From IMG/VR virus record IMGVR_UViG_3300001525_000075, positions 15,144 to 79,143 of that record: 64,000 nucleotides of DNA; one strand, given 5' to 3'. This document shows, in pieces, positions 6,206 through 36,502 of the stretch (positions within the stretch are counted from its first letter, which is position 1; each line of letters opens with the position of its first letter). The stretch comes from a virus. Lineage: Duplodnaviria > Caudoviricetes. The position numbers and the translations under genes were made by a program. Under the pieces are notes generated by a model. The model was not told where the DNA came from. It ran no database searches and saw only the letters and a program-made list of their open reading frames with translations.

Positions 6206-9200
6206 ATGAAACTTAATAATGGAAGTAAGATTATTGGGACTGATGATATATTTGTCAGTTCCAATAATTCTCAAATTGGTGAGGATTTAGCAGCAGTCTT
6301 AACTAAACAAGATGCTGACATATTAGATTTAAAAAAGAACGTTAAATGGTTGTATAAGTATGGTGGTGTAGGTGGATCAGGAGGAGGTTCTTCTACAGAA
6401 TCTACTAAAATATCTTGTACTATTACTTATACTAATACAGCAGGTAAAGAAGTTCAAGCAAAGATTAATGAAGGTAGTACTTTTAATATTGAGAAAGGTT
6501 CTTAGATTACTGTATCTTGTAGTATTGTTAGTAAGAAAAGTCTTTCTGAATATAAAATGACTTTTGCAGGTGAAAGTATTACAATTAAAGCTACAGATGT
6601 TGCAGGTGTAAAGAAATTAATTCCTACTGCAAATTCAGCATATACTCTCACAGTAATAGGTGAAACTACAGTAACTTTAGATTTTTCAGTATTTGTAGAT
6701 GTACAAGAGGTTGCTGGAAAAATACTTTTATCAAACGGCATTTCAATTGCTTCTAATCAATCTATTTATGCCTCTCAATTAGAGGGTGCTAATTATGTTT
6801 TTTAGTTAACGAATTATCAACCTCAATCTTTTGAAAGTTTTGTAAATTCTGTATCATTGAATGATGTTACATTAGATACATCTAAATATACTGTAACTGA
6901 ATCTGTCGACACATCAGGCACTAAAACTACTACAGTAAAAGTACTTATTACGGATGTATTTACTGATTATGATATTTATTATTTTAAAGTAAATTATACA
7001 TTCGGATCAGATACTAACGTATTATCTAGTTAGTTTATTTATCAATCTGATCAAGCATTTGTGTATTGTTATGCTAATGCTTTTGATGTATATAAAAATC
7101 CAACAAGTACCCCAGTAGGCACAAATAGTTATAACAATACAATTAGTTATTAGATTTATCCTAATAAAACTGATTCACTTACAGCACAATATAATCTTAC
7201 TATTGAAGTGGATGGTGAAACTACAAGTCAAGTTGTAAGTGCTGGAACAACGTATTCTTATACTATTACTAATACAGTAAAGACTCAAGAGCCTAAAGAA
7301 ATTGCTATTAAATTTTCTTTAGATAACACAAGTTATACTTATTATATATATTTAATTAAACCTGAGAATGTAGTATATATATTTGAAAATGAAGGTACTA
7401 AATTATATTAGGCTATAGCTTGCGATACTGAAGAAAAGAATAATGATATTATAGAATTCCCTCCAGGTAATCCCTTAATAGAAGGTAACCCAATTCAAAT
7501 TACATCTGAGAAAACATATTAGTTAAAAACGATATGCACACATCAAGGTACTTTGTATTCTAGTAATCCTCAAAATACATTAATTTCAGATTTTCTTATA
7601 AGTGAACCTCAAACTTTGGGAAATCAATCTAGAGTTGATGCTTTATTTTCATTTGGATTTAAATATGCAGGTTCTAACTGGGATTCTAAAATAATTACAA
7701 TTAAACACCAAGGTTCAGGTAGTACATCCGAAGTTACTTTGTATAAGAATAAAATTACATTTAGTAATGGTACTGAAACTACTAAAGTTTGTATTCCTAA
7801 TGATGGAGAATATCATTTAATTTAGTTATATTTTAAATCTGACTATAATACAGATACTGATAGTGCTGATACAGGTGATACTAGTAAATCTAAACAAGTA
7901 GTTGCATTATTCATAGATGGCGTAATTGAAACTGCTCCTTTTGAAGTTACTAATTTCTTTATTGAAAAAGAATATACTTATTTAGTATATCACGTTGGAC
8001 AATGGACATTTGACCACGTTGGTGTTGCAACATTTAATTCTAAGTTAATTCAAGGATTTTACGGAACAGATCATTCCGCAATTGCGAGATATTTATTTGA
8101 TTTTGATCCGTTTATTCCAGCTAATTATTATTAGACTTATCAAGTTAAACTTAGAGGAAAATCTATTAATGCGTTTGATAAATCTATTTACAAATCATTC
8201 GACTAGACATCAGCTGGTAATCCTTAGTGGTTAAATTATTTTTGTTATGATTAGGATGAAGATCAAAATAACTTATATTTGCATAAGTTTATTAATGTAT
8301 CTCCTAGTATTATATCAAAGATAGCTCCTGATATGGAAATTTACCGCATCGTTCCTGAATCTACACATTATACTAAAGATGAGAGTGGATTTGAAGAAGT
8401 ACCCGATGAACATTTTAATCAATTTGTTTATAATACATTTACATCATTCGGAGAAACTGATAAGATTTCTAAAGTAACTTGTAGTTTTTAGAAGTGGGTT
8501 GATGATAAATTTGTAGATTTAATTTAGGATAAAGAAGGAGAAGATTCTATCCAGTTTAGAATTAAATATCAAGGTTCTTCTACATTATTGTATAGTTGCA
8601 AAAATTTTGAAATTAGTGCAGAACCTTTAGTAGATAGTGAAGGTGTATCAAGAAATGTTTATTTTACTCCCGATATTGATAAATTTCCAAAACTTGAACA
8701 GAGTTTTAATTTAAAAGCTGACTTAGTAGATTCTTCGCATAGTAATAATGTAGTCATTGGTAATTTTGTTAATGATTACATGACATCTCCGTTTAATACT
8801 ACTGATAGAACTTATAGAGCTTGTTTGACAGGTAAACCTATTTTATTATTTATTTAGAATAATGCACGAGATAAATCAGGTGAAACAGTTTATGATACAA
8901 GTGATTTCTTTTTAGGTATATATTCTTTAAATTTAAATCGTAGTTCTGTAAATAATTTAGGTTATTCTAGATTAATGAAGAATGATACTGAAGAAATAGA
9001 TATAGGTACGAATGAAGAATTACAAGATAGATGTTGTGATAAGATTACTAAATTTCATGTATTAGAAGGCACTGAAAAAATCGATAGTAGTAATAACTTT
9101 GCTGTTGCTGAAATTCAAGGTAACGGTATCTTGTATGATTGGTCACAATTTGATTAGACACTATTAGCTAATGAAGTATTAGGTGATTTCTATGTAATGG

Positions 9201-12200
9201 AAAATGGGAGAATCAGCGAAGAATTTACTTCAGTTTTATCTAAACCTTTTAAAGCATTAGCTCAAATAATTAAAACTTATTTGTTAGGTACTAATCCTAT
9301 ATTTAATACTATTGATTATTCAACGATATTTAAAGATAACGAATTAGTAAATCCTGAAAATTATTATTATACTAATGATGGAGCTATTACAAGTATTCCT
9401 AAAGACGCATTAGTAATAACTTCTACTACTTTAAATAATTTATCAGATCCAATGCCCTATCGTAGTTATGAAACTACAACTCAAGGATTAAAAATTAGTA
9501 AAATTAATAATCCAATGTATTAGTTTCATTTAGTATGTAATAGTTTAGGACAACCTCTTGTAAATAATAAAGTTTAGTACTATTATATAGAGAAATTAAA
9601 TTAGTTAAACTACGATCCTGAAAATCCCCCTGCTTATATTGATATCGAGAGTGCAGTTAAGTATTATGTGATTTGTATGGCATTTGCAATGGTTGACTCT
9701 GTTTAGAAGAACTTAACTATCAAATGTCCAGATACAAAAATTAAAAATACTTGGTATCCTGAATTTTATGATATGGATACAGCATTTGGTATCAGTAATT
9801 CAGGTGGTGAAACATCTTTCCAAGCGTATAGCGATTGGGTAAATTCTGACGGAACTATTACTCAAGATTATACAGATAAAGATGCTGGAGAAGGTTATTA
9901 TGATACTCCTTCATCATTCTTATTTATGTATGCTAAATATTTAGATATATTAAATGATGATTTTTCAGGAGGTAAAGGTGTTTATCCTTATAAAGAATGG
10001 GCTAACTTAAGATCTTCTACAGGTGCATTTTCTTCGGGTACCGCGTTTTGTAAAAAATATATTGATGGTTTTTTTGGAGATATTAATCCTATTATTTGGA
10101 ATTTAAACTATTTATATAAATATTTTTCAACTTCTAAAAATGATTCTTCTACTACTGGAGATTCTGAAATTGGACGTTTTAACGGCACTAGAAGATTTTC
10201 AAGAAAAGAATATTTAAATAATAGATTTAGATACCTCGATGTATTATTTGGTTGTAGAAATCAATCTGCAATAGGTATGGATACATTACATACCATTACT
10301 AATAATACTGAAACTATGGATGGTTTATCTAATTCAGATATTAAAGTAAATTCTCAAATGTTTCCTAAATTTACAAAAGGTGTAATTGGAAATATTTATG
10401 CTACGGTAACTGAAGAACCAAAAACTCCTGTTGTATTATAGTTAAGTCAAAATGTAAGTAAATTATATTTAACTGATTCACAAGGTACGGCTACAGTACA
10501 AGGTAATATCCCTACAAATACAGGTGCGGGTTTCTATGGAACTAAAGAATTATCATCTATTTCAGAATGCGGGCAATTCTTAATAAATACATAGAATACA
10601 AATACTATTGAAAATAATATTATAAAAGATATTATTATTTCTAAATCACCGAGTTCTAAATCTGCAGATTTAGAATTAGATCTAGCTAAATTAACTAGTG
10701 TTGAGAATATCACGATATCTTCAGGAAGTTAGTTATATTATAAAACTCTTACTATTAGAAATAGCGGATCTTTAACTCAACAATTAAATAAAGTTACGTT
10801 AAAAAATATTTAGTGTAATACTTTAACTTTGAATAACTTATCAATTAACAACCTATCAATTAGTGATTGTTAGTGTACAGAGTTAAATATGACTAAAATA
10901 ACTCCTGATTCATTTAGTTATTCTAGCAATAGTTGTCAAAAGATTAATTTTAATACAGTAATATTAAAATAGGATTATACATTAAATGATTTAAAATGTA
11001 CTTCATTTACAGATGCTAACAGTACTTATTTAAATTTTACACTTAATTTAAATAGTTATTTATCTACATTAAGTCTATCAGGAACAAAATGTTCTAGTTT
11101 TACAATACCTAGTTGTTATAATATTTCTTAGATTACTGTTAAACAAATCAATTGTCCTAAATTTTATCTAAATACTTTATATGGAGAAGGTAGCGTTAGT
11201 ACTGTGCCTATTGAAGATGTGTTAGAATTAGGATTTGTAAATTCTACAGTAGAACTAAGAATATCAGGATTTAATAATATTACAGGTTTAACTCTTGGAA
11301 ATGTGACAACTTGTAATTTAGCTACAAATGCTTTGTGTGGATGTAGTTCTTTAGAATCTCTTCCTAATATTAATTTTAATATTATCGGTACTGGTACTTT
11401 AGGTAAAACTCATAAATTAGCTTGGGATGATAAATTACGAGTAAAAGTCGGGACAAATAATTTAGCAGGAACATTCATTTATTGTGATGACGTAACATTA
11501 GAGTTTGTTACTCAATGGTTAGAAGCTCATAAAAATGATTCTACTAAAGTAACAGATATGTCTAGAATGTTTGCATTTACTGAAATTGAACAAATATGTA
11601 AAGGGTCGTTATCTGACGAATATTTATAGTTTGAAACAGCATTTGTAGAATACGCAGGAAGTAATAAAATTAAATTAGACTATATATTTTATGGAACTGG
11701 GTTTAATGTATTAACAAAAAATTTCATTAATTGTTCTACATCTAATTTATATTGTCCTGCGGGAGGTGTCGGTACTTCTAATTCAGATAAATTATATATT
11801 GAACAATTAGCTTTTAATGATTTAAATACTGTACAAATAAGTAATAGCAATTTGTATAATTGGTGGTATAGAGCTACATGTTATGTATTTGAAAGAGATG
11901 GTAATGATATATCTGTATTAGATACTTCAACAATGTCTGATTGGTTTAATGATAATTGTAAATTAACATCTTTAAGTACATTCAATCCATATAATAGTAA
12001 AAGTAGTCCGTTTGATTTTGAAAATGGATTTCCTGCTAGTATAACTTATATAGATATGTTTCACTATACAAGTTATTGTTGGGTAACAAATCTTCAAAAT
12101 GTGTTTAAAAATGTAAAGACTAATTGTACATTCTCACAAGGTAGTTTTAATCAATCGTCAAGTACAGATTATAAATATGACGAACTCCCTAATTTATATG

Positions 12201-13471
12201 AAATGTTAATTAACGATTCGGGTAATTTAAGAGTCAATCTTAACATGAATGAAAATATAGAAGGGGGTAGTTATGCATTTTGGTCTACTTGTACAGCTGA
12301 ACAATTTAAAACTATTATAAGTAAAATTGCAGAAAATCAATCTACTAGTAGTTCTGCTTCTCTTAATTACATATTACAAAAAACTATAGTTACTGATGCA
12401 GATTCTAATATATTAGATTATCAGTTAAGCACTTTTAAGAATTTGCTTTATTCTTTTAAAGATTGTATTTTTGAAGATAGTAATGGAGAAATAGTTTATC
12501 TAGATTTAACAAATGCGTTTAAAACAAATAGTACTGATTCCAAATACAAAACAGTAAAAAGATTAGACTATTGTTTTATGAACTGCTATCTAAATAGATT
12601 CACAAAAAGATTAGGTATTTAGAATGTAGAAAATATGTTATACTGTTTCTACAACGTTAATTGGAGAATTGACAGTTTTGGTAATACTGTTTCTGTTTGG
12701 GAACCTAGTCACTTATATAAAATTATTGTTTCTTCTGAAGACAAATTTATTCTATTACCTGAAAATTTCTTTAAAATTTGTGCTGCTAATTGTCAAATGC
12801 AATATTGTTTTGCTGCGTCAAGTTTTTCACAAACTAGTTTATACGGTTATCTTCCTAAAGAAGATACATTAGGTTTAACCGATGCTATATCAAAAGGAGT
12901 TTCTGTAGATAATATATTTTAGAATATAAGACTAATATATCATTATGTACCTGATTCAACCGAAGAGCAAACTGTATTTTTCTTTCCCAAATGGTATAAT
13001 ATATTAAGTTTTAATAATAAATATATGGTTTATATACCTACATCACCTAATGATGAAACTAAAGTATATTTATTTGAAGATAGTACAGTATATGGTTCAT
13101 ATGATTAGTTACCTTAGTTACCTCCTTCTGATGGACAAAGTACTGCAAGAATGTGTGATAGATTAGCAACAAAGGAACGAGATACTCATATTTTATAGCC
13201 TTATCCTTCTGCTTCAAGTTTACCTGCTATTTCAGGTACAACTTATAAAAATGCAATACCTTATACATTAGCTTTAATATTAACATTTGATGGCTCAATT
13301 ACAACAGTAATTGAAAACTTTGATACAGCATCAAGTAAAATCCAAAGTAATTCTACTCCTGTTTGTCAAAACGGTGGTGATCCTGAATGGTAGGGCTATT
13401 GTTTTGGTGGAAGTGGTGGTGATACATCTACTATAGTATCTAGTACAGTTAGTTCATATATATTCGGATAA
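6206..13471 (+). CDS. 2421-aa giant protein with a CotH-kinase-like core (~8560-10300) and LRR/BspA-like C-terminal region (TAG=Gln)
   Basis: Twelve track ORFs (6206, 6557, 7208, 7553, 8279, 8588, 8975, 9197, 9773, 11204, 11852, 12635) share frame 2; first TAA at 13469. Motifs: YQGSST..YSCKNF, LKADLVDSSHSNN, GIYSLNLNR, MVDSVQKN, WYPEFYDMDTAFG; later LxxLxI repeats and VTDMSRMF. Confidence 0.7.
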
Positions 13472-13472
13472 T

Positions 13473-15260
13473 ATGTCAATTAATAAAAACATTTCAGTTT
13501 GGAGGGGTAATTCTTCCCCTCCAACTGATTTTCATTTATGGGAATTGCCTGATGGCACATTAAAGTCATTTGTTGATAACAAATGGCAAGTGATAATATC
13601 TCCTGAGATATTAGATAAGATTAAAAATAATATTTTAGATTTAGGTACTTTTAATACATCAGGTGAAGCAGAAGCTTATGCTGCTAAATCTGAAATTTGT
13701 AGAAATACTAATGCTTTACTATTGCTTTACAAAGTAGGTAATGCTAACGGTATTATTATCCAACAAGTTGGAGAAAATAATACTTATCAAAAATTAATTT
13801 GGAAGAATACACAATATTCAAGATTGATTCCTGTTAATTCTGAACCCAAAGCTTGGACTCAGACTAATATGGATACATTAAAATGGAATTCTAGTGAAAA
13901 TAAGTATGATTTCTATTATTTAGATAAAAAAGTAAGTGGTCATACAGATTCTATTCCTAATGCAGATTCTTCTAAAAATGGATTATTAAATGTATCTAAT
14001 ACAGATATTTTATCGCAAGTAAATTCTGACGGAGATTAGGATATACAATTATAGATTAACGGTGTTACTAAAAGTAAAGTAAGAATTCAAGGTTTAGATA
14101 ATAGTACTAAATCTTTAATTAATAATTCTTTAAATTCTTTAATAGTAACTTCTGAAGATAAAAGTACTAAAATAGTATATACTATTAAAGGTAAAACTAA
14201 TTCAGATTCTTATACTACACCTTATACTATAGATGTACCTAAAGATACTTCTATTAAAACTGTAGAATTAGCTGATACTAATGCCACAGTAGATTTAAAT
14301 GGTAATATAATTCCAGGTTCTCCTCTTGGTGAAACAGCATTAAGTATTGTTTACATTCTTGCTGATCAATCTTATAAGATTGTTAATATAAATCTTTCTA
14401 AATTTATAGAAGAAGCTGAATTTAAAGATGGGTTACAAGTAGTCGATCATAAGGTTAGTGTAAAACTAGATTCTAGTACAGAACCTTATATTTCTGTATC
14501 ATCTGACGGAATTAAATTATCAGGAATTAAAGATACTGTAGATAAAATGAGTAGTATATATAATGGAAATCCTGAATTGGTTACACCTACTTTAAGTGGT
14601 AATTGGAAAATCTATAAAAATGACGGTGTTACTGAAGTGACAGGATTATCATTTCCTATAGAACAAGGTTATAAAGCACAATATACAGGAACTTGGAAAT
14701 GGAATACTGTGAGTGGTAAAAAAGATCCCATAAGTACTTCAGGTTCTTGGGGTACAACTTTACCTGCTTCGGGAGTAAATTCCAGTACTTATACTTCACC
14801 TGTATATACATCTAGTGCTACTATATCTCAAACTATTTATGCTCCTAAATATGGATTAATGGTTAGTGGTTCTAACGTAGTTCCTGCAAGTGGTAATGAT
14901 TCTAAATCAGCTAGTACTTCTTGTTCATTCTCTACCAAAGTATTTTACGGAGTTAATACTAATAATTCAGCGTCGGGAGATGTGACTACTATATTAAATA
15001 CACTTACTTCTACTTTAGGTGGAAAAGCTAGAACTGTTAATAACGTAACTGCCGACACTTCTAACTATTACTGGTATTCTTATCCTAAATCTTTAGGAGT
15101 CTTAACATCAATTATTCAAAATGGTGCTGCTCCTATTTTAGAAGATTTTAATAAATATGAAGTATCTTATACAAGTAATTCGGGAGCTACTTTTGATTAT
15201 TATTTGTATATATCTAAGAATAAAGGTGCTTTTAGTAATGTTTCACTTAAATTTGAATAA
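13473..15260 (+). CDS. Virion structural/fibre-like protein, 595 aa (TAG=Gln)
   Basis: Track ORFs 13473..14039 and 14547..15260 are joined in frame through two TAGs; S/T/G-rich beta-type C-terminal domain. Confidence 0.75.
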
Positions 15261-28402: not shown

Positions 28403-31400
28403 ATGATTATAGCGAATTTTGTTAGCAATCGTCCCACAATGTCTGAGACGAGAACTTATGAGGACTTTTACAAATTTTTGGGTATGTGAGTGCCACTTTA
28501 TTTAGTAATAAATAATAGTAACTATGTGAAACGGAGAAACCCTCCATTACAAAGGGTAATTCCGTAGGAAACTTTGACATAAAGGACCTCTAACGAATAG
28601 AGATTTGCTTTTAAATAATCCGAATTCACGGAAATATGGAATTAAGGAAAAAATCAATATTGATAGCTTTAGTTATTGGTGACGGAACTATTAATTATCA
28701 AACTAAAGTTATTAAAGGAAAAACATATAAATACGCTAATTTAGAAGTCAATCATTCTTATAAACAATTAGAATATTGTAAATGGAAAGCTAATTTATGT
28801 AAATCTATTACTGGAAGGAAATGTTTAATACGCTACAAACACGTTCCTGAAAGAAAAATAAATAATCGGATAACTAAATCTACAGAAGCTTGTAGATTTA
28901 CTTGTTGTCACAGATATTTTAGAATTTTACGAAAGTGGCTTTATCCTAATAATAAGAAAAGATTAACTTCTAAATATTTAAAGTATTTAGATGAACAAGG
29001 TTTAGCAATTTGGTATATGGATGATGGTTCTTTATATGTAAGACCTGATAAATCCGCATTTAATTGTGAATTACATACTCATATTCCTAAAGAAGACGCA
29101 GAAGATTTAATTTTAATGTTTCAAAACAAATGGAATATTAAATTTAATTTACATCATGTTGGTGAAAATCAATATAATTTGAGATGTTGTTCTTATGCTG
29201 GTGTTAAATTTATAAAATTGATTTCTCCGTTTGTACCGCAATGTATGGATTACAAATTAAAAATTCCTGAAAGATTTCTCCACGAGTGCATAGTACCCTA
29301 ATTATAGGGTAATGATATATTCTAAACTAACAAGATGGCAAATTGTTAGAACTATAGGATAAAGAGCCTATAGGATAATATTATTGACTAAGCCCCATAA
29401 GTTGGGTGTAGTTTCACGTCTATACCCTGAGTTAACAGCTTCCTATCTTACTGAATCATTGAGAAATATCTTTTATCAAGACCGTAAGTCTAATAACAAG
29501 TATCAATCAATTGATTCTATGTATCATTTTTAAAATCGGTACATATTAAATTCTCTGAATTGCTGGAATGTCTTTTAGATAATCAGCAGCTAAAATAAAA
29601 TGTTCAACGACTAATCGAAAGATGTAATGTATAAAGTAATAAAAACTGTAAATGTAAAAACGGATGATTATTATCTTGGAATTATTTATTCTGAGAAAAA
29701 TTCGTTTGATGGACAACTTGGAAACGGAGTTAACATAAATGACCCTATGACTTATCAATTTAGTAAAACTAAATTTCAACAACAAGTTAAAGAGTGGGGT
29801 GTTAAATCCTTTAAAGTAGAAGTATTAAAAGAATATGATTCTTTAGAAGAAGCACAAGAATATTTAAATATAAAACTTACTCCTAAAGAAGTAGCTACTA
29901 AAGAGTGTTTAAATAATACTTATGCTGACAAGTTATATGAAGTATATGTATATGATAATACAGGTAAATTTGCTAATAGTAAAATATTAGTAGACGCTGA
30001 CACTGCATTTAATGGATTAAAACTTGATAAACAATATTTAAGTTTTTTATATGATGAAAAAGGATTCAGTAAAGCCAAGAAGATGCAGATTCAAAATAGA
30101 CCTGTATATAAGTATGATATAAATGGAAATTTTATTTGTTCATACGAAACTCAAGTACAAGCTGAAAAAGATAATAAATATAGTAATATTACTAAATCAA
30201 TTAAACTTAAACAAGCTTGTAGAAATGGATTTTATTGGACTCTTCAAAAACTACCTAAATTATATTGGAAGAATCGTAAATGGGTTCAAGTTTATGATTC
30301 TCATTATAAATATATTAGAGGTTATAAGTTTTTAAAAGAATGTCAAAGAGTAAAAGGATTTGAAGTTCGTGATGTAATGAATAAAAATATGTTATATGAT
30401 GGATGTTTTTACTTTTATAAATGAAGTAGAGAATACTGAAATGTAATGATATAGTCTAATCTTAATAGAAATATTAAGTATTAATGTTTGAGTGGGAAGT
30501 TGAAACGAATTACATCAAGCGTGTTGAACTCGCTGATACTCCCCAAGGAGATGGCTCAAACGGTTCTGAAATTGAGTTTGCGTTTAAGGAAAGATATTAT
30601 GAAAAGTATGATATTTTCAAGCATGACAAGACTATGCAACAATTTATGGTTGTAAGTCGTCCTATTCGTAAAGCAGACAATTACTGGGTAGTCACCTGTC
30701 GTTTAATTGATAGTGACTATTCTTCTAGCATTGATCTTAACGATTATTCTATTGGTGACACCACTAGATTCCAATCTAATGCAATGCCTGAATTACACGA
30801 GGAAGGTAAACTTAACATATTAAAAAGAATTTACATTGCTTTCCTCCGTTAAGTTATTAACTTAATGAATAATTAAAATAAAATTCTTAATTACTGGAAA
30901 GCCTATATTGGTAATCAGTAGCGAAATCTCAACTTTTACAAAAGTTCTGAGAAACGTTCAACGACTAGTCTAAAAGACGTAGGAGAAATGAACTCCGAAA
31001 TGGAATAAATCTAACTTAAATACAATGAAATATATATAGTATATCAAACAGTAAATAAAGTAAACAATAAAATTTATATAGGTGTCCACGGAACAACTAA
31101 TCCTAACGAATTCGACGGTTATATTGGAAATGGAGTTTTGATGGAGTAAATGAAGCGGGAAGATATTTGAATCCTAAAGCAATTGGTGCAGGACATTTAC
31201 CTAGAGCAATTAAAAAAGGTCACCAATTTTTAGGACATCAATTCTCATACGAAAAGCTTCCATCTATGAAGAAATTAAAACATAGAAACGTAACTACTGT
31301 CGATAAACCTTATATTGGAGGAAAAATTGGAAGATATAATGATAATGGAGAACTTTTAGAAATTCTTCCGAATATGACTGAATGTGTTAAAGCAGGATAC

Positions 31401-34400
31401 AAGAATGCTAAACAAGTAGCATTAGGAAAACGACAACATTGTAAAGGATTTGTATTTAAGTATTTAGATTAAGATATAGTCTGAACAATATTGAAAAGTA
31501 TTGAATAACATAATTGTATGTAAAATATCAAAGTAATATTGAGCGTCATCGCAATTATATTACTACTCACCGCGTAAATAGAGTAGTAATATTAGAATAA
31601 TTATCGACTGCGCAAGATTATTAATAAAACAGATTAATCTGAAATAGTAATAATCAATATCTTCTAAATTGCTGGAAAGTTCTTACTAATCAGCAGCCAA
31701 AAAATAAAAGGTTCAACGATTATCCAAATGGAGTAAAATTATGAAAAGGAAGATATATAATATAAATATTAAATGAAATATATAGTATATTTAACAACTA
31801 ATACACTTAACAACAAAATTTACATAGGAGTACATAAAACTGAAAATCCTGATGTGTTTGACGGATATATCGGATGTGGAGTTAATATGTGTTATCCAAG
31901 TAGTTACACAGATCCTAAAACTCCATTTCAGCACGCTGTTAAAAAATATGGAATTAAGAGTTTTAAGCGATATGTTTTACAAATTTTTGACTCTGAAGAA
32001 GAAGCTTATAATTTGGAATCAATTTTAGTAAATAAATCTTTTATCGCAAGAAATGATACATATAACATATCATTAGGAGGAAATAAAGGAAATTATTTAT
32101 TTCCTATAAACCAATTTAATAAAGATGGAAATTTTATCAAATCTTGGGATAACATGCTTGTTGCATCTGAAGCTTTGGGCGTATCACATACTAGTATTAA
32201 TAATGCTAAATTGTTTAAAGTAAGTTGTTTAGGTTATTTTTGGTCTACAGATTCATTTATTAATATAAAAGAATATAGTTATCATGTTGGAAAAAATGTT
32301 TATAAATATACTAAAAATGGCGAGTTAATAGATTCTTACGAATCACTGACTAATGCTGCTAAAAGTAATAATAGTTTAGAAAAAACTATATTTAGGTCGA
32401 TTCAATCAAATATTCAAGTTCAAGGATTTTATTATTCATTTACACTTGTAGATAAATTTATTCCTAAAAAATTACCTAGTTTAAAAGGTAAAATTGTATA
32501 TATTTACGATTTAAACGGAAATTATCTAACAAAAAAAGAAAGTGGATCTGAATTAAAAAAATATTATAATGTAAAATCTTACGGTTGTTTAAGGCAAGCC
32601 CTTATTACTGGGAAACCTTATAAAAACACACAAGTTTCTTTAGAATTTAAAGATAAGTTAAATCCTGTAGAATCTTCAACTAATAAAGCAAAACGCATAG
32701 GTGTTTATGATTTAAATGGAAATTTAATAGAAGAATTTGAATCTATAAAATCTGCTTCTAGAAAATACGGGAGTTGTGTGTTTAGAGTACTCAATCATCG
32801 ACAAAAACAATCTAAAAATTTAATATTTAAATATTTATAATTATATAAAGATATAGTCTATTTTGAGACGATAGTTATTCAGCCCTCTACGCTGCTCATG
32901 AGAACCAATTTATCAGTATTGCCGAAGGTAAAGACCAAGGTTCTCTTACTGAAACCATCTATAAAATGCAAAAGAAGGAAAAGACTCTTCTCGACAATTT
33001 CCTTTATGTGCGTAATAATGGCTTATTATTTAATAAGTGTAATGTTGATGTGAACGGTTAGTGTTTAGCCGCATAATAAATAATTTATTATGAAAACCTT
33101 TTGAATTGCTGGGAAGCCTGTGATGGTAATCAGCAGCTACTTTAAAGAAATAGAGTAGTTCAACGACTAGAAACTATTAGGTAATTTAATGAATAAATAG
33201 ATTCATATATTATAATTTAATAATCAAATAGGATTATATGGAATTAACAGAAGAACAAAAAAGCTTATTGCTAGCGTTGTGTATAGGAGACGGTTGTTTA
33301 CGAAAACCTCATCCTAAATCAGGAAATGTTCAACTAGAAATTGCTCATTCTACAAAACAAGAAGAATACTGTAAATGGAAACGTGATTTAGTTTATAGTA
33401 TTTTTGGAGGAAAAAGAATTCCTAAAATAGGATATAAAACAATAAAATTAAAAAATAGAGATAAGGAATATAAAGCATGTAGGTTTACTAAATCTCATCC
33501 TTATTTCTTATACTTAAGACATTTGTTATATCCTAACAATGTGAAAGTTATGACTAGAGAAATATTAGATAAGTTGACATTACAAGGTTTAGCAATTTGG
33601 TACATGGACGATGGTTCTTTTTACAAAAAAGATAACGAAGATGGAACTAAATCTATATGCTTTGATTTAAGAATTTCAACTGATTCTTTTTCTTATGAAG
33701 AAAACGTATTAATATGTGATTTCTTTAAAGAAAAATATGGTATAAATTTTTATCCATATAAAACACATAAAGAAAAAGAACATAGTTGGGTTTTAAGAGC
33801 TAATAAACAAGCTGCTATAAAGTTTATAAATTTAATTAAACCTTATGTTATTCCTTCAATGAAATACAAAATAGAATATAAAAGTTAATAGTTTCCAAGA
33901 GTAAAAGGCAACTTTAAAATTAAAGTTGAAGATATAGTCTAAACTTATACGAAATTAGAAGTATAAGAATTACAGGATAAAGAGCCTGTAAGATAATATA
34001 ATTGAAGCCCACAATCAGCGATCCTGATACAGGTAGACCTAAACATTGAGTATAGTAACTTAATAAATGGGTCGAATAGATGTAAATCTATTTATAAATA
34101 ATTTTCTTTAATTGCTGGAAACTCTTATTTAAGATAATCAGCAGCTAATTTTTACATATAGTAAGCATTAATAATGTAACTGTAAAAAAGTTCAACGACT
34201 AGGTTTTAACCGTACATCTATAAGATGGAAATAGGAAATAACTTAAAGTAAAAGTATAAAACTTATGAAGTATGTAGTATACTTAACTACAAACAAAATA
34301 AATAATAAAACTTGTGCAGGTTTTAAATGGAGTTATGAAAAATCAAAAATGATTTTGCCTTACAAAAAATCTAATATAAAACCTGTAAAAATAGCGCAAT

Positions 34401-36446
34401 ACGATTTAAATCATAAGTTAATAAAAATTTGGAATTCTGTATCTGAGTGTAAAAAAGAATTTCCAAGTTGTCAAAAAGTTTGTAGAAAAGAAAGAAAAAC
34501 TTCAAAAAATTTTATATTTGAATATATAAGTTAAAGATATAGTCTGCTCTTTATAGTAATATAAAGATAACAAAAGAATTTATATAGGTGATGGTATCAT
34601 ACCTCAAGTTGAGCGTTTTGCATCTAAGTATGCTTTCGCTAAGTTAACTATTGAGGTATTCCATACTGTAATTGCTACACTTAATGAAAAAGCTTCTCAA
34701 CCTACTGGTAATCACTATATGTTTATATGCAACGAACGTATGTGGAACCTCATTCAACAAGTTCTTGGCGATTATCTCGCTAAGTTCAAGACTGATGGTA
34801 CTTATCTTTACTCTAAGGCTGCTAACGGCTATGTAAAGGTGGGCGCAACGTTTGATTCATATGAATACGGTGGAAATAGTATTACTTTTAAGGTTGATCG
34901 CACATTCTCACGTGAATATGGCTTTGAAAAAGGCTACTGCCTTTGCCTTGATTTAACTGCGGATTAGACTTCCGCAGAACCTCCTATTTAAATATCTAGG
35001 TAGGAGTTAAAAATAACTTCCTAATTGCTGGAAACTCTTATTTAAGACAATCAGCAGCTAAGTATTAGAATATGCAAACTTTATAAGTAGCTCTAATAAA
35101 AGTTCAGAGGCTAGTTACGAAACTTAAATTATTAAAATAATAATTGAAATGGAAGACAAATTTAAATATATAGTATATTTAACTACAAATCTTGTAAATA
35201 ATAAAATTTACATAGGAGTACATAAAACAAAAAATCCTGAAGTATTTGATGGGTATCTTGGATGCGGAGTTAAAATATCTGACAGATCGACTTATAGATA
35301 TTGTCATACTCCATTTGAATCAGCTGTTAATAAATATGGACCTTCTAAATTTAAACGAAAAACTTTAAAAGTTTTTAATAAATTAGAAGATGCGTTAGAT
35401 CTTGAACGACGGCTAGTAGATTCAAACTTTATTAAACGTAAAGATACTTACAATGTAACCTTGGGTGGAAATTTACCTCCTACATCAAAAAAAATTATAT
35501 ATCAATATTCTTTAAAAGGATCTTTTATAAAAGAATGGGATTCTATAACAGAAGCGTCCATTTTCTATAAATGTAGTTCTTCTTCTATCGGAAAAGCTAT
35601 ATTTGATAGAACACCTAGTCGAGGTTATTTATGGACAGATTACAAATATGAATACATTGATATAAATAATTTTAGAATTAATACAAATAAACATACTTGC
35701 TATATATATGATAGTTTGGGAAATTTTATAAATAGTACAACTTCTATAAACGAAGCTGCAAAACTATATAATCTTTCTTCAGGTAATATTTCTAACGCTA
35801 TATCTGGCAAATATTGTGTAAACAAACAATATTATTTTTCTTCAGTTAAATATACTAAATTCCCAATCCCTGAAAAAATTTCTTATGATGACGGCTTTTA
35901 TATGTATGATTTATCAGGTGTATTTATAAGACATTTTAAAACAATATCTGAAATACAAAAGTTTTTTAATACTAAACGAGTAAGCTCTGTATATAGAGCT
36001 ATACGAACAGGAAATACCGCTTTTAATTATCAATGGAGTAATAAAAAATTACAAAACATGAAAGAATTAAAAGTTTATAATCAAAAACGAAAAGTTGGAA
36101 AATATAGCTTAAACGATGAACTTTTAGAAGTTTTTGATACAGTAAGAAGTGCGAGAAAAATAGCTTCCGGTGTTCCACAAGTGTTAAAAGGTCAAAGAAA
36201 TACGGCAGGAGGTTATAAATGGAAATATATAGAATAAATTTGAAGATATAGTCCAAAACTCAGTAGATGTTTACTTTGAAAGGGGGTGACTTCATCTCTA
36301 ACAAGTACCTCGGTGTTGGTGGTGAAGATGGACTCAGCTCAGGTGTTGTTTCAAGTCCTGTTGCTGGTTCTAAGCTAATTAACTGGGGTTACAGTGGTGT
36401 AGGTGTATTTAATCCCTACAGATCTTTCATTTTGCGTGAAATTTGA
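28403..36446 (+). CDS. Major capsid protein, 473 aa, join(28403..28483, 29387..29524, 30487..30807, 31517..31575, 32866..33058, 34005..34040, 34578..34988, 36264..36446)
   Basis: Exons sum to 1422 nt and splice in frame: KFLG|TKPHKLG, IDSMY|FEWEVETN, LHEEG|YVKYQSN, THRV|DDSYS, DVNG|KPTISDPDTGRP|IYIGDG, EPPI|QMFTLKGG...FNPYRSFILREI-TGA. Resembles crAss-like MCP (recalled). Two TAGs (34965, 36264). Confidence 0.9.
28484..29386 (+). mobile_element. Group I intron MCP-I1 (903 nt)
   Basis: 5' exon ends in U and intron ends in G; P7 GAATA/TATTC; IGS-like AGTGCC near the 5' end. Confidence 0.85.
28636..29301 (+). CDS. LAGLIDADG_2-type homing endonuclease in I1
   Basis: IALVIGDG and LAIWYMDDGS motifs; 221 aa. 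Confidence 0.9.
   Translation: MELRKKSILIALVIGDGTINYQTKVIKGKTYKYANLEVNHSYKQLEYCKWKANLCKSITGRKCLIRYKHVPERKINNRITKSTEACRFTCCHRYFRILRKWLYPNNKKRLTSKYLKYLDEQGLAIWYMDDGSLYVRPDKSAFNCELHTHIPKEDAEDLILMFQNKWNIKFNLHHVGENQYNLRCCSYAGVKFIKLISPFVPQCMDYKLKIPERFLHECIVP
29525..30486 (+). mobile_element. Group I intron MCP-I2 (962 nt)
   Basis: P/Q/R/S elements AATTGCTGGAA, AATCAGCAGC, TTCAACGACTA, TGATATAGTCT; P1 pairing TATGTAT/GTACATA; ends in G. Confidence 0.9.
29627..30424 (+). CDS. Divergent GIY-YIG-like endonuclease with NUMOD1-like repeats in I2
   Basis: YKVIKT...YYLG degenerate motif; F..EVLKEY..LEEA..E; VYKYDINGNFICSY repeats. Confidence 0.65.
   Translation: MYKVIKTVNVKTDDYYLGIIYSEKNSFDGQLGNGVNINDPMTYQFSKTKFQQQVKEWGVKSFKVEVLKEYDSLEEAQEYLNIKLTPKEVATKECLNNTYADKLYEVYVYDNTGKFANSKILVDADTAFNGLKLDKQYLSFLYDEKGFSKAKKMQIQNRPVYKYDINGNFICSYETQVQAEKDNKYSNITKSIKLKQACRNGFYWTLQKLPKLYWKNRKWVQVYDSHYKYIRGYKFLKECQRVKGFEVRDVMNKNMLYDGCFYFYK
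30808..31516 (+). mobile_element. Group I intron MCP-I3 (709 nt)
   Basis: TTACTGGAAA / AATCAGTAGC / TTCAACGACTA / AAGATATAGTCT; IGS TACATTGCTTTCCTC pairs with the junction GAGGAAGGT|TATGTA. Confidence 0.9.
31025..31472 (+). pseudogene. Degraded GIY-YIG endonuclease in I3
   Basis: ATG AAA TAT ATA (+TA) GTA TAT frameshift; KIYIGVH...FDGYIGNG then TAA at ~31147; only a C-terminal NUMOD fragment remains (31167..31472). Confidence 0.8.
31576..32865 (+). mobile_element. Group I intron MCP-I4 (1290 nt), phase-2 insertion in a Val codon
   Basis: AATTGCTGGAAA / AATCAGCAGC / TTCAACGATTA / AAGATATAGTCT; IGS TCGACTGCGC; ends in G. Confidence 0.9.
31773..32840 (+). CDS. GIY-YIG homing endonuclease with NUMOD1 repeats in I4
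   Basis: YIVYLTTN..NNKIYIGVHKT...DGYIGCG; EAYNLE; repeated YDLNGN.I.EF.S motifs; 355 aa. Confidence 0.88.
   Translation: MKYIVYLTTNTLNNKIYIGVHKTENPDVFDGYIGCGVNMCYPSSYTDPKTPFQHAVKKYGIKSFKRYVLQIFDSEEEAYNLESILVNKSFIARNDTYNISLGGNKGNYLFPINQFNKDGNFIKSWDNMLVASEALGVSHTSINNAKLFKVSCLGYFWSTDSFINIKEYSYHVGKNVYKYTKNGELIDSYESLTNAAKSNNSLEKTIFRSIQSNIQVQGFYYSFTLVDKFIPKKLPSLKGKIVYIYDLNGNYLTKKESGSELKKYYNVKSYGCLRQALITGKPYKNTQVSLEFKDKLNPVESSTNKAKRIGVYDLNGNLIEEFESIKSASRKYGSCVFRVLNHRQKQSKNLIFKYL
33059..34004 (+). mobile_element. Group I intron MCP-I5 (946 nt)
   Basis: AATTGCTGGGAA / AATCAGCAGC / TTCAACGACTA / AAGATATAGTCT; ends in G. Confidence 0.9.
33238..33888 (+). CDS. LAGLIDADG_2-type homing endonuclease in I5
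   Basis: LALCIGDG and LAIWYMDDGS; 216 aa; paralogous to the I1 ORF. Confidence 0.9.
   Translation: MELTEEQKSLLLALCIGDGCLRKPHPKSGNVQLEIAHSTKQEEYCKWKRDLVYSIFGGKRIPKIGYKTIKLKNRDKEYKACRFTKSHPYFLYLRHLLYPNNVKVMTREILDKLTLQGLAIWYMDDGSFYKKDNEDGTKSICFDLRISTDSFSYEENVLICDFFKEKYGINFYPYKTHKEKEHSWVLRANKQAAIKFINLIKPYVIPSMKYKIEYKS
34041..34577 (+). mobile_element. Group I intron MCP-I6 (537 nt), apparent terminal A
   Basis: Full P/Q/R/S set; IGS ATAAATGGGTC pairs with the junction GACCT|ATTTAT. Confidence 0.85.
34265..34534 (+). pseudogene. Internally deleted GIY-YIG remnant in I6
   Basis: MKYVVYLTTNKINNK is fused directly to TCAGFKWSY...QYDLNHKLIKIW; the YIG motif and catalytic region are missing; 89 aa. 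Confidence 0.75.
34989..36263 (+). mobile_element. Group I intron MCP-I7 (1275 nt)
   Basis: IGS ATCTAGGTAGGAG pairs with the junction CTCCTATT|TAGAT using two G-U pairs; P/Q/R/S present; ends CAG. Confidence 0.9.
35149..36237 (+). CDS. GIY-YIG homing endonuclease with NUMOD1 repeats in I7
   Basis: YIVYLTTNLVNNKIYIGVHKTKNPEVFDGYLGCG; 362 aa; paralogous to the I4 ORF. Confidence 0.88.
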   Translation: MEDKFKYIVYLTTNLVNNKIYIGVHKTKNPEVFDGYLGCGVKISDRSTYRYCHTPFESAVNKYGPSKFKRKTLKVFNKLEDALDLERRLVDSNFIKRKDTYNVTLGGNLPPTSKKIIYQYSLKGSFIKEWDSITEASIFYKCSSSSIGKAIFDRTPSRGYLWTDYKYEYIDINNFRINTNKHTCYIYDSLGNFINSTTSINEAAKLYNLSSGNISNAISGKYCVNKQYYFSSVKYTKFPIPEKISYDDGFYMYDLSGVFIRHFKTISEIQKFFNTKRVSSVYRAIRTGNTAFNYQWSNKKLQNMKELKVYNQKRKVGKYSLNDELLEVFDTVRSARKIASGVPQVLKGQRNTAGGYKWKYIE

Positions 36447-36502
36447 TAAAATCACTGTAATAGCGTAAAGATAGCGCAAATAATATAATATATACATAGA
36501 TT

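Follow-up and report, generated by a model that had tools for sequence, protein, structure and literature searches.

We have analysed positions 28403–36446 of a 64,000-nucleotide (nt) stretch of viral DNA, hereafter the window, which corresponds to bases 15144–79143 of a 79-kb viral contig (IMG/VR record IMGVR_UViG_3300001525_000075). Read with the standard code, this region shows only endonuclease-like open reading frames (ORFs) and short capsid-like fragments. A comparison of one capsid fragment with GenBank phages has matched two unannotated gut-phage records, both with an intact capsid gene of 473 or 474 amino acids (aa) in the same neighbourhood as in the window; by megablast, the locus itself has no match among GenBank phages. 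The analyses below make it very probable that the region is the single major capsid gene, invaded by seven group I introns, of an uncultured crAss-like gut phage with recoded TAG. The phage would belong to the Zeta group, judging from the 90–190 kb genomes of its relatives, the recoding and the intron load.

Exon map and joined capsid protein

The intronless 473-aa capsid protein encoded at 8179–9600 of MT835470.1 (L001) has been used as the reference, together with a second intronless homologue (L002). By tblastn, the L001 protein aligns with the window in eight colinear pieces (residues 1–27, 28–73, 74–180, 181–199, 201–264, 265–276, 277–413, and 415–473), and the exon borders were afterwards refined at nucleotide level. 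The resulting exons are listed below, P1 being the pairing of the intron's internal guide sequence with the upstream exon end.

Exon 1, 28403–28483, plus strand: 81 nt, residues 1–27; ends in U, with P1 GGU/GCC; from tblastn
Exon 2, 29387–29524, plus strand: 138 nt, residues 28–73; from tblastn
Exon 3, 30487–30807, plus strand: 321 nt, residues 74–180; from tblastn
Exon 4, a micro-exon, 31517–31575, plus strand: 59 nt, residues 181–199 and two bases of codon 200
Exon 5, 32866–33058, plus strand: 193 nt, residues 200–264
Exon 6, a micro-exon, 34005–34040, plus strand: 36 nt, residues 265–276
Exon 7, 34578–34988, plus strand: 411 nt, residues 277–413; in-frame TAG at 34965–34967
Exon 8, 36264–36446, plus strand: 183 nt, residues 414–473 with the stop TGA; begins with a TAG codon, opposite glutamine (Gln) in L001

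The eight exons total 1422 nt, and 6622 of the 8044 nt (82%) are intronic. A preliminary description, made from the letters of this DNA, had given the same coordinates, the same eight exons with micro-exons of 36 and 59 nt, and the same intronic share, all of which the tblastn map has reproduced. The joined product of 473 aa aligns with the L001 protein from 1–473 to 1–473 without any gap at 75.9% identity, in agreement with the continuous capsid protein of the earlier account, and with L002 over the full length at 58.7% identity. No frameshift and no TAA or TGA stop is found within the exons. We have rejected inteins and frameshifts as explanations of the gaps, which hold stops in all frames as well as ribozyme cores.

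Regarding the identity of the protein, L001 and L002 match the Pfam family Crass_capsid (PF23898) with 52.2 and 40.4 bits (cut-off 27), and L001 also matches a PHROG major head protein family. These profile matches are those of the intronless proteins; from the window itself, exon 3 alone gives a weak match to Crass_capsid of 15 bits.

Group I intron cores

The seven predicted introns are listed below with the positions of their conserved P, Q, R, and S elements, their matches to the Rfam model Intron_gpI (RF00028), their ORFs and, where given, the lengths of P1 and of P10, the pairing of the guide with the downstream exon start, in base pairs (bp). E denotes the expectation value.

Intron 1, 28484–29386, plus strand: 903 nt, ends in G; LAGLIDADG_2 ORF at 28636–29301, the last codons of which overlap P3' and P8
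Intron 2, 29525–30486, plus strand: 962 nt; GIY-YIG-like ORF at 29627–30424; P 29558, Q 29581, R 29602, S 30448; Rfam 34.7 bits (E 5e-6) and a 3' piece of 24.3 bits; P1 of 7 bp
Intron 3, 30808–31516, plus strand: 709 nt; decayed GIY-YIG gene, with an N-terminal fragment at 31015–31149 and a shifted C-terminal ORF at 31167–31472; P 30889, Q 30913, R 30956, S 31473; Rfam 39.7 bits (E 1.7e-7); P1 of 9 bp, P10 of 7 bp
Intron 4, 31576–32865, plus strand: 1290 nt; intact GIY-YIG/NUMOD1 ORF at 31773–32840; P 31667, Q 31688, R 31711, S 32850; Rfam 32.9 bits (E 1.9e-5); P1 and P10 together with 11 of 12 pairs
Intron 5, 33059–34004, plus strand: 946 nt; LAGLIDADG_2 ORF at 33238–33888, lying between P7 and P3' inside a stem of 7 bp; P 33104, Q 33128, R 33158, S 33931; Rfam 32 and 15 bits
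Intron 6, 34041–34577, plus strand: 537 nt; 89-aa GIY-YIG remnant at 34265–34534; P 34110, Q 34136, R 34190, S 34536; Rfam 43.2 bits (E 1.5e-8); last base A (34577), with G at 34576
Intron 7, 34989–36263, plus strand: 1275 nt; intact GIY-YIG/NUMOD ORF at 35149–36237; P 35023, Q 35049, R 35102, S 36245; Rfam 35.2 bits (E 4e-6); P1 of 8 bp, P10 of 5 bp

Intron_gpI matches the P3–P7 part of introns 2–7 with 32–43 bits (E 1.5e-8 to 3.5e-5, with 9 kb searched), and the P7'–P9 part is matched as separate pieces in introns 2, 3, and 5. When the whole window is scanned at E ≤ 0.05, the group I matches are confined to the capsid gene. The covariance model has thus matched six of the seven gaps that had been described as group I introns, and intron 1 joins them through its pairing helices and its paralogy to intron 5. 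Similarly, the P/Q/R/S elements claimed for every intron are present with 0–3 mismatches in introns 2–7, but those of intron 1 are divergent, though still base-pairing. The placement of every intron ORF between R and S has held throughout. Near-identical core stretches occur among the introns, with ~40 nt in common between introns 6 and 7.

The helices P2–P9.1 of introns 1 and 5 have each been checked base by base, and in intron 1 all helices pair, from P1 through P9.1. The differences between the two are compensated: P3 is CUAUG/CAUAG in intron 1 and CCUUUU/AAAAGG in intron 5, P7 is GAAUA/UAUUC and GACUA/UAGUC, respectively, and P4 and P8 of intron 1 are likewise compensated relative to intron 5. 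In addition, their 3' regions are 80% identical and their LAGLIDADG proteins 41% identical. By these comparisons, intron 1 is a paralogue of intron 5 and a group I intron of divergent sequence.

Splice junctions and guide pairings

At the predicted junctions, all seven 5' exons end in U, which forms a U.G pair at the cut in a P1 of 3–9 bp, and six of the seven introns end in G, intron 6 being the exception. A P10 of 3–8 bp adjoins P1 in six introns, where its strand comes immediately 5' of that of P1. In intron 2 only P1 is seen, and in intron 1 both pairings are just 3 bp long. Across the ligated junctions, 11 of 12 positions pair for intron 4, 11 of 11 for intron 6, and 13 of 13 for intron 7. 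The guide pairing of intron 7 with exon 8 (P10 AUCUA/UAGAU) places the TAG at 36264–36266 in exon 8.

The borders can also be compared with ~95%-identical contigs from runs X3 and X5, which belong to different studies. These contigs skip introns 3, 4, 6, and 7 at the predicted borders, with skipped lengths of 709/710, 1290, 537, and 1275 nt, respectively; introns 3, 4, and 7 are skipped in both runs and intron 6 in X3, and the joints seen are 30806/31517, 31575/32866, and 34988/36264. Since introns 1, 2, and 5 are kept in the same contigs, these contigs are more likely to be intron-less alleles than spliced RNA, and on either reading the predicted borders are confirmed. The splicing of all seven introns is logically required for the capsid protein to be made.

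Around the splice site between exon 4 and intron 4, we have also observed a perfect 10-bp hairpin (31559–31568 with 31581–31590; AUUACUACUC / GAGUAGUAAU), which brackets the site, with the P1 bases GCGU exposed in the loop. Such a fold may act as an alternative structure that competes with P1 or positions it.

Intron-encoded endonucleases

In introns 1 and 5, the ORFs match LAGLIDADG_2 (PF03161) with 98.8 and 103.7 bits (cut-off 25), and both lie between P7 and P3'. For the other introns, the profile evidence is of a different kind. NUMOD1 modules exceed their cut-off of 22.8 in the ORFs of intron 4 (65 bits) and intron 7 (50.6 bits), and the latter ORF also matches I-HmuI_NUMOD-like with 30.2 bits. 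The GIY-YIG profiles themselves stay below threshold: SegE_GIY-YIG (PF19835) gives 21.5 bits for the intron 7 ORF (cut-off 25), PF01541 gives 18.6 bits (cut-off 22.6), and with TIGR01453 the intron 4 and intron 7 ORFs reach 41.8 and 33.2 bits (cut-off 56; E 1e-10 and 5e-8). Both of these ORFs are assigned by PHROGs to homing endonuclease families, and the Y-I-V-Y ... Y-I-G motif is kept in four GIY-YIG copies.

We have further modelled the N-terminal domain of the intron 4 ORF with AlphaFold (predicted local distance difference test score, pLDDT, of 77). Its top three folds in the PDB are the I-TevI catalytic domain (probability 0.98–1.00), a moderate likeness in fold with template modelling (TM) scores of 0.46–0.62 next to a sequence likeness below threshold, followed by the GIY-YIG domains of Slx1 and UvrC, all with E-values above 0.001. 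A sequence search of the PDB with the same endonuclease has returned chance-level matches only. The intron 2 ORF is 31% identical to the intron 4 endonuclease and is a more distant paralogue.

Two of the GIY-YIG genes are decayed. In intron 3, an N-terminal GIY-YIG fragment is followed by a C-terminal part in a shifted frame, and in the 89-aa ORF of intron 6 the first 19 residues are fused to the C-terminal module. Compared with longer homologues at the same sites (~1,000 nt in L153, L157, L159, and L115 for intron 3; L115 for intron 6), internal deletions of ~270 nt in intron 3 and ~800 nt in intron 6 can be recognised. Five introns therefore appear to carry I-TevI-like GIY-YIG genes, two of them as deletion remnants. 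The two endonuclease families named in the preliminary description are both recovered, LAGLIDADG_2 above its cut-off and GIY-YIG through sub-threshold profiles, PHROG assignment and fold, with the qualification that two of the five GIY-YIG copies are decayed.

Two further observations concern the family of introns 1 and 5. A contig of a related strain in run X3 joins position 33581 to 28995 across 21 shared bases, so that the N-terminal half of the LAGLIDADG gene in intron 5 runs on into the C-terminal half of that in intron 1; this is either a recombinant endonuclease gene or an assembly join. The P9.1 hairpin at 29347–29378 (also at 33965–33998), CUAUAGG-AUAAAGAG-CCUAUAG, has unrelated flanks in many contigs of runs X2, X3, and X5, so introns of this family probably occur in further genes or phages of these samples too.

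TAG recoding

The capsid exons hold two in-frame TAG codons. In the other long ORFs of the window, 179 in-frame TAGs occur in 17,480 codons (~1 per 100), most often opposite Gln in relatives. TAG is thus a sense codon throughout the contig, and the amino acid is probably Gln. This agrees with the stop-codon recoding described for crAss-like phages (PMC7886860, PMC12386605). The idea of TAG readthrough as a gate on the capsid gene, put forward in the preliminary description, finds no support, as the codon is read contig-wide and the capsid gene is nothing special in this respect.

The intact endonuclease ORFs, five in number, follow another pattern: TAG is absent from their 1419 codons, against ~14.5 expected, and TAA or TGA serves as their stop. 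Of the Gln-type codons in ORFs of the phage itself, 24% are TAG (P ~5e-6 for the shortfall in the endonucleases). That is, the selfish endonuclease genes stay readable under the standard code.

Introns in relatives and strains

We have collected 97 distinct related capsid loci from IMG/VR and GenBank. Among them, 77 are intronless, 18 carry a single intron, one carries two, and one, on a truncated contig, carries at least three. Homologous introns occupy the sites at residues 180/181, 276/277, and 413/414 in some IMG/VR relatives but not in most, and other sites are used too; site 413/414, that of intron 7, is occupied in 16 of 161 mapped loci, a number in which some contigs are counted twice. 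A further relative (G001, the contig behind L254, with loci L278–L280 at bases ~6527–13867) has six introns in its capsid gene, near residues 15, 78, 252, 264, 276, and 457, only two of which are in common with the window. Altogether, at least fourteen insertion sites are in use across the clade. Intron presence in relatives, proposed earlier as a check, is indeed variable: introns 3, 4, 6, and 7 are absent from the X3/X5 strains, and 77 of the 97 loci lack introns entirely. Judging from presence and absence at the same site and from the intron-encoded endonucleases, the introns appear to be mobile in the clade.

Such variation raises the question of whether the assembly has stitched introns of several strains into a composite, so that no single phage would carry all seven. 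Strains of the same habitat do differ in intron content, the introns share near-identical core stretches (~40 nt in introns 6 and 7), and one X3 contig links two LAGLIDADG genes via a 21-nt repeat. Yet the exons stand in the correct order and frame, and identical or near-identical pieces from runs X1 and X2 span several exon–intron borders (29284–29538, 29503–29725, 34925–35080, and 36194–36474), with other such pieces lying inside introns 1–5 and 7. Moreover, the six-intron capsid gene of G001 has been found independently on a separate IMG/VR contig. We consider an artefact of this kind extremely improbable.

The same distribution bears on the possibility that ordered splicing of seven introns, combined with suppressor-dependent reading of TAG, has been selected to delay or dose the capsid protein. 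This protein does need seven introns removed and two TAGs read, recoding has been proposed to time late phage genes (discussed in PMC7886860 and PMC12386605), and all group I matches, R elements, and endonuclease homologues of the 79-kb contig sit in the capsid gene. However, TAG is used contig-wide at ~1 per 100 codons; four of the seven introns are missing from close strains, and all seven from most relatives, so that intron number is not conserved; and the insertion sites differ between the intron-rich relatives. The decayed endonuclease genes fit a selfish homing cycle instead. The seven sequential splicing events that had been thought to gate capsid production therefore find no support, as nothing shows order or regulation and the intron number varies among strains, and we regard a regulatory role of this sort as very improbable. 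A single capsid gene invaded by mobile group I introns describes these data better.

The junction of intron 6

Intron 6 differs from the other six in its 3' end. Two options keep the reading frame. In the first (CCU/...A/AUU, slashes marking the splice sites), the 5' site is canonical and the guide pairing contiguous, and the terminal base is A. In the second (CC/U...G/AAUU), the terminal base is G and a C stands at the 5' site. The guide of the intron, AUAAAU-GGGUC, pairs with both exon ends. Shifting the borders to obtain both U(-1) and a terminal G has been rejected, for this adds an extra base and leads to a stop seven codons past the junction.

The end ...AGA/AUUUAU is common to intron 6 (34576–34578) and its homologues in L115 (5040–5044), which is full-length, and L254 (543–547), which is ORF-less. 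Both homologues have the same guide sequence, and the P9 hairpins show compensatory changes. This indicates that the unusual end is a conserved property of the intron family and not an assembly error. A 14-mer scan of IMG/VR with the intron 6 guide has returned mostly chance matches in AT-rich DNA; after a context filter, the true intron 6 context is found at L172 (on the L111 contig), L219 (on the L115 contig), and L254, of which only L254 is new. As a side observation, the L111 contig shows at ~11880–11900 an apparent micro-exon of 15 nt (GAT ACA AAC AGA CCT) between an intron at site 271/272 and the intron 6 homologue.

To our knowledge, the terminal guanosine (omega-G) is otherwise universal in group I introns. 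That the intron 6 family splices naturally with a non-canonical junction is accordingly a tentative proposal, which we consider rather unlikely; within it, we would sooner expect an adenosine to stand where omega-G normally does than the 5' splice site to have a C-G pair.

Several points, that of intron 6 among them, weigh against reading the region as one capsid gene with seven group I introns. At intron 6, a U at the 5' site together with a terminal G breaks the frame, so that either one canonical feature is violated or the allele is mis-spliced. The best Intron_gpI score in the window, 43.2 bits, lies below the Rfam gathering score of 50 bits, and a scan of the whole window at the gathering threshold has given no match. 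These low scores arise because ORFs of 0.3–1.1 kb split the model, as the ORF-less homologues of introns 5 and 6 in the IMG/VR locus L254 show directly: separated by the same 36-nt exon, they match the full model with 63.8 and 104.1 bits. Intron 1 reaches just 13.4 bits in Rfam (E 0.26). A tRNA search of the window and the 15,143 bases upstream, that is, of the 79-kb contig, has detected no tRNA gene and no suppressor tRNA; since the relatives have genomes of 90–190 kb, the contig is probably a partial genome, and the suppressor tRNA would lie in the missing part. For the runs that yielded the skipping contigs, no library type is on record, and these contigs could in principle be spliced RNA. 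Finally, no RNA run was listed among those containing the stretch, and four runs of DNA or unrecorded type gave contigs only; splicing in vivo is what the DNA sequence leads us to presume.

Some of these points could mean that the seven introns are real in the DNA and that at least one of them mis-splices, with intron 6 as the first suspect and intron 1 as the second. Little or no capsid protein would then be made, and the phage would be a dead-end variant or depend on co-infecting helpers. The terminal A of intron 6 with G one base earlier, where canonical ends add a base and lead to a stop, would fit such a defective allele, as would the deletion remnants in the endonuclease genes of introns 3 and 6 and the 13.4 bits of intron 1. 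On the other hand, the end and the guide of intron 6 are shared with the divergent L115 and L254 with compensated P9 hairpins, and thus seem to have been kept by selection, and the ORF-less copy in L254 scores 104 bits. The core helices of intron 1 all pair and are compensated relative to intron 5, the exons are free of frameshifts and of TAA or TGA stops, and pieces identical or nearly so to those of the window turn up in another two runs, both from one study, which may include the source sample. With these observations, we hold a defective allele to be improbable and retain the reading of an invaded capsid gene.

Discussion

For an invaded capsid gene, the following course of expression can be proposed. 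The gene would be transcribed as one precursor of ~8 kb, in which each intron would fold into a P3–P9 ribozyme core. The internal guide sequence would pair with the upstream exon end (P1, with U.G at the cut) and with the downstream exon start (P10), and two guanosine-dependent transesterifications would excise each intron. The product would be an mRNA of 1422 nt that is translated to the 473-aa capsid protein, with the two TAGs read as sense, probably as Gln.

The introns appear to fall into two related lineages, one of introns 1 and 5 with LAGLIDADG genes and the other of introns 2, 3, 4, 6, and 7 with GIY-YIG genes. The endonucleases, which presumably are active in homing, would spread the introns into intron-less alleles during co-infection, and their genes would decay once a site is fixed. 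Homing followed by decay would account for the intact genes in introns 1, 2, 4, 5, and 7 and for the deletion remnants in introns 3 and 6.

Among known systems, we may begin with the phage T4 genes td, nrdB, and sunY, which have group IA introns with I-TevI-type endonucleases, one intron per gene, in genes of nucleotide metabolism. The capsid gene of the window resembles them in the invasion of an essential phage gene, the P/Q/R/S elements, the GIY-YIG and NUMOD-type modules, a presumed spread by homing, and decayed endonuclease genes. It differs in that seven introns lie in one structural gene, and in that the ORFs are placed between R and S, whereas those of T4 lie in P6 or P9 loops. The Staphylococcus phage Twort gene orf142 has three group I introns in one protein-coding gene, and is similar to the gene described here in having several group I introns, a class of self-splicing elements; the number is three against seven, and the phage group is another. 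We know of no report of stop-codon recoding for Twort.

Major capsid genes split by introns have been described in the Delta and Zeta groups of crAss-like phages (Yutin et al. 2021, PMC7886860; reviewed in PMC10136315), so the statement that intron-rich capsid genes occur in some crAss-like phages was already established in 2021. The published cases agree with the present one in the phage assemblage, the gene, group I introns recognised by endonuclease domains, stop-codon recoding, and relatives with genomes very large for the group. The Zeta-group capsid gene of that study consists of five fragments, with intron-type domains in three of the four gaps and no in-frame stops (PMC7886860), whereas we have found eight exons, seven introns, micro-exons of 36 and 59 nt, and recoded TAGs within the exons. 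In addition, the ribozyme cores, the guide pairings, the junctions, and the presence or absence in strains have been worked out here. In the Jug jumbo phages of the gut, essential genes are split by many group I introns with homing endonucleases, and splicing has been confirmed by metatranscriptomes (PMC12880540). Their introns average ~206 nt and are spread over terL, nrdD, and the DNA polymerase gene (PMC12880540), in contrast to the present contig, where one gene contains all the introns and an endonuclease gene, whole or as a remnant, is found in each. A phrase search of the literature for phage genes that carry five to seven such introns has returned only organelle and ribosomal DNA cases. 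The window gene is thus an extreme case of the already described intron-split capsid genes of recoded crAss-like phages.

Overall, this case illustrates that selfish introns can load an essential and highly expressed phage gene until 82% of it is intron and two of its exons fall below 60 nt. With standard gene callers, such a capsid gene would be missed and only the endonuclease ORFs reported; correct exon maps therefore matter for the annotation and classification of crAss-like phages. The odd junction of intron 6 is a specific and testable anomaly in group I chemistry, and, if true, it would mean that exon ligation in nature can accept, or has become adapted to, a terminal nucleotide other than G at its G-binding step. 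Since the stages of the homing cycle are found side by side, from intact endonuclease genes to deletion remnants and to ORF-less copies in relatives, this locus and its clade offer a good natural system for intron invasion and loss.

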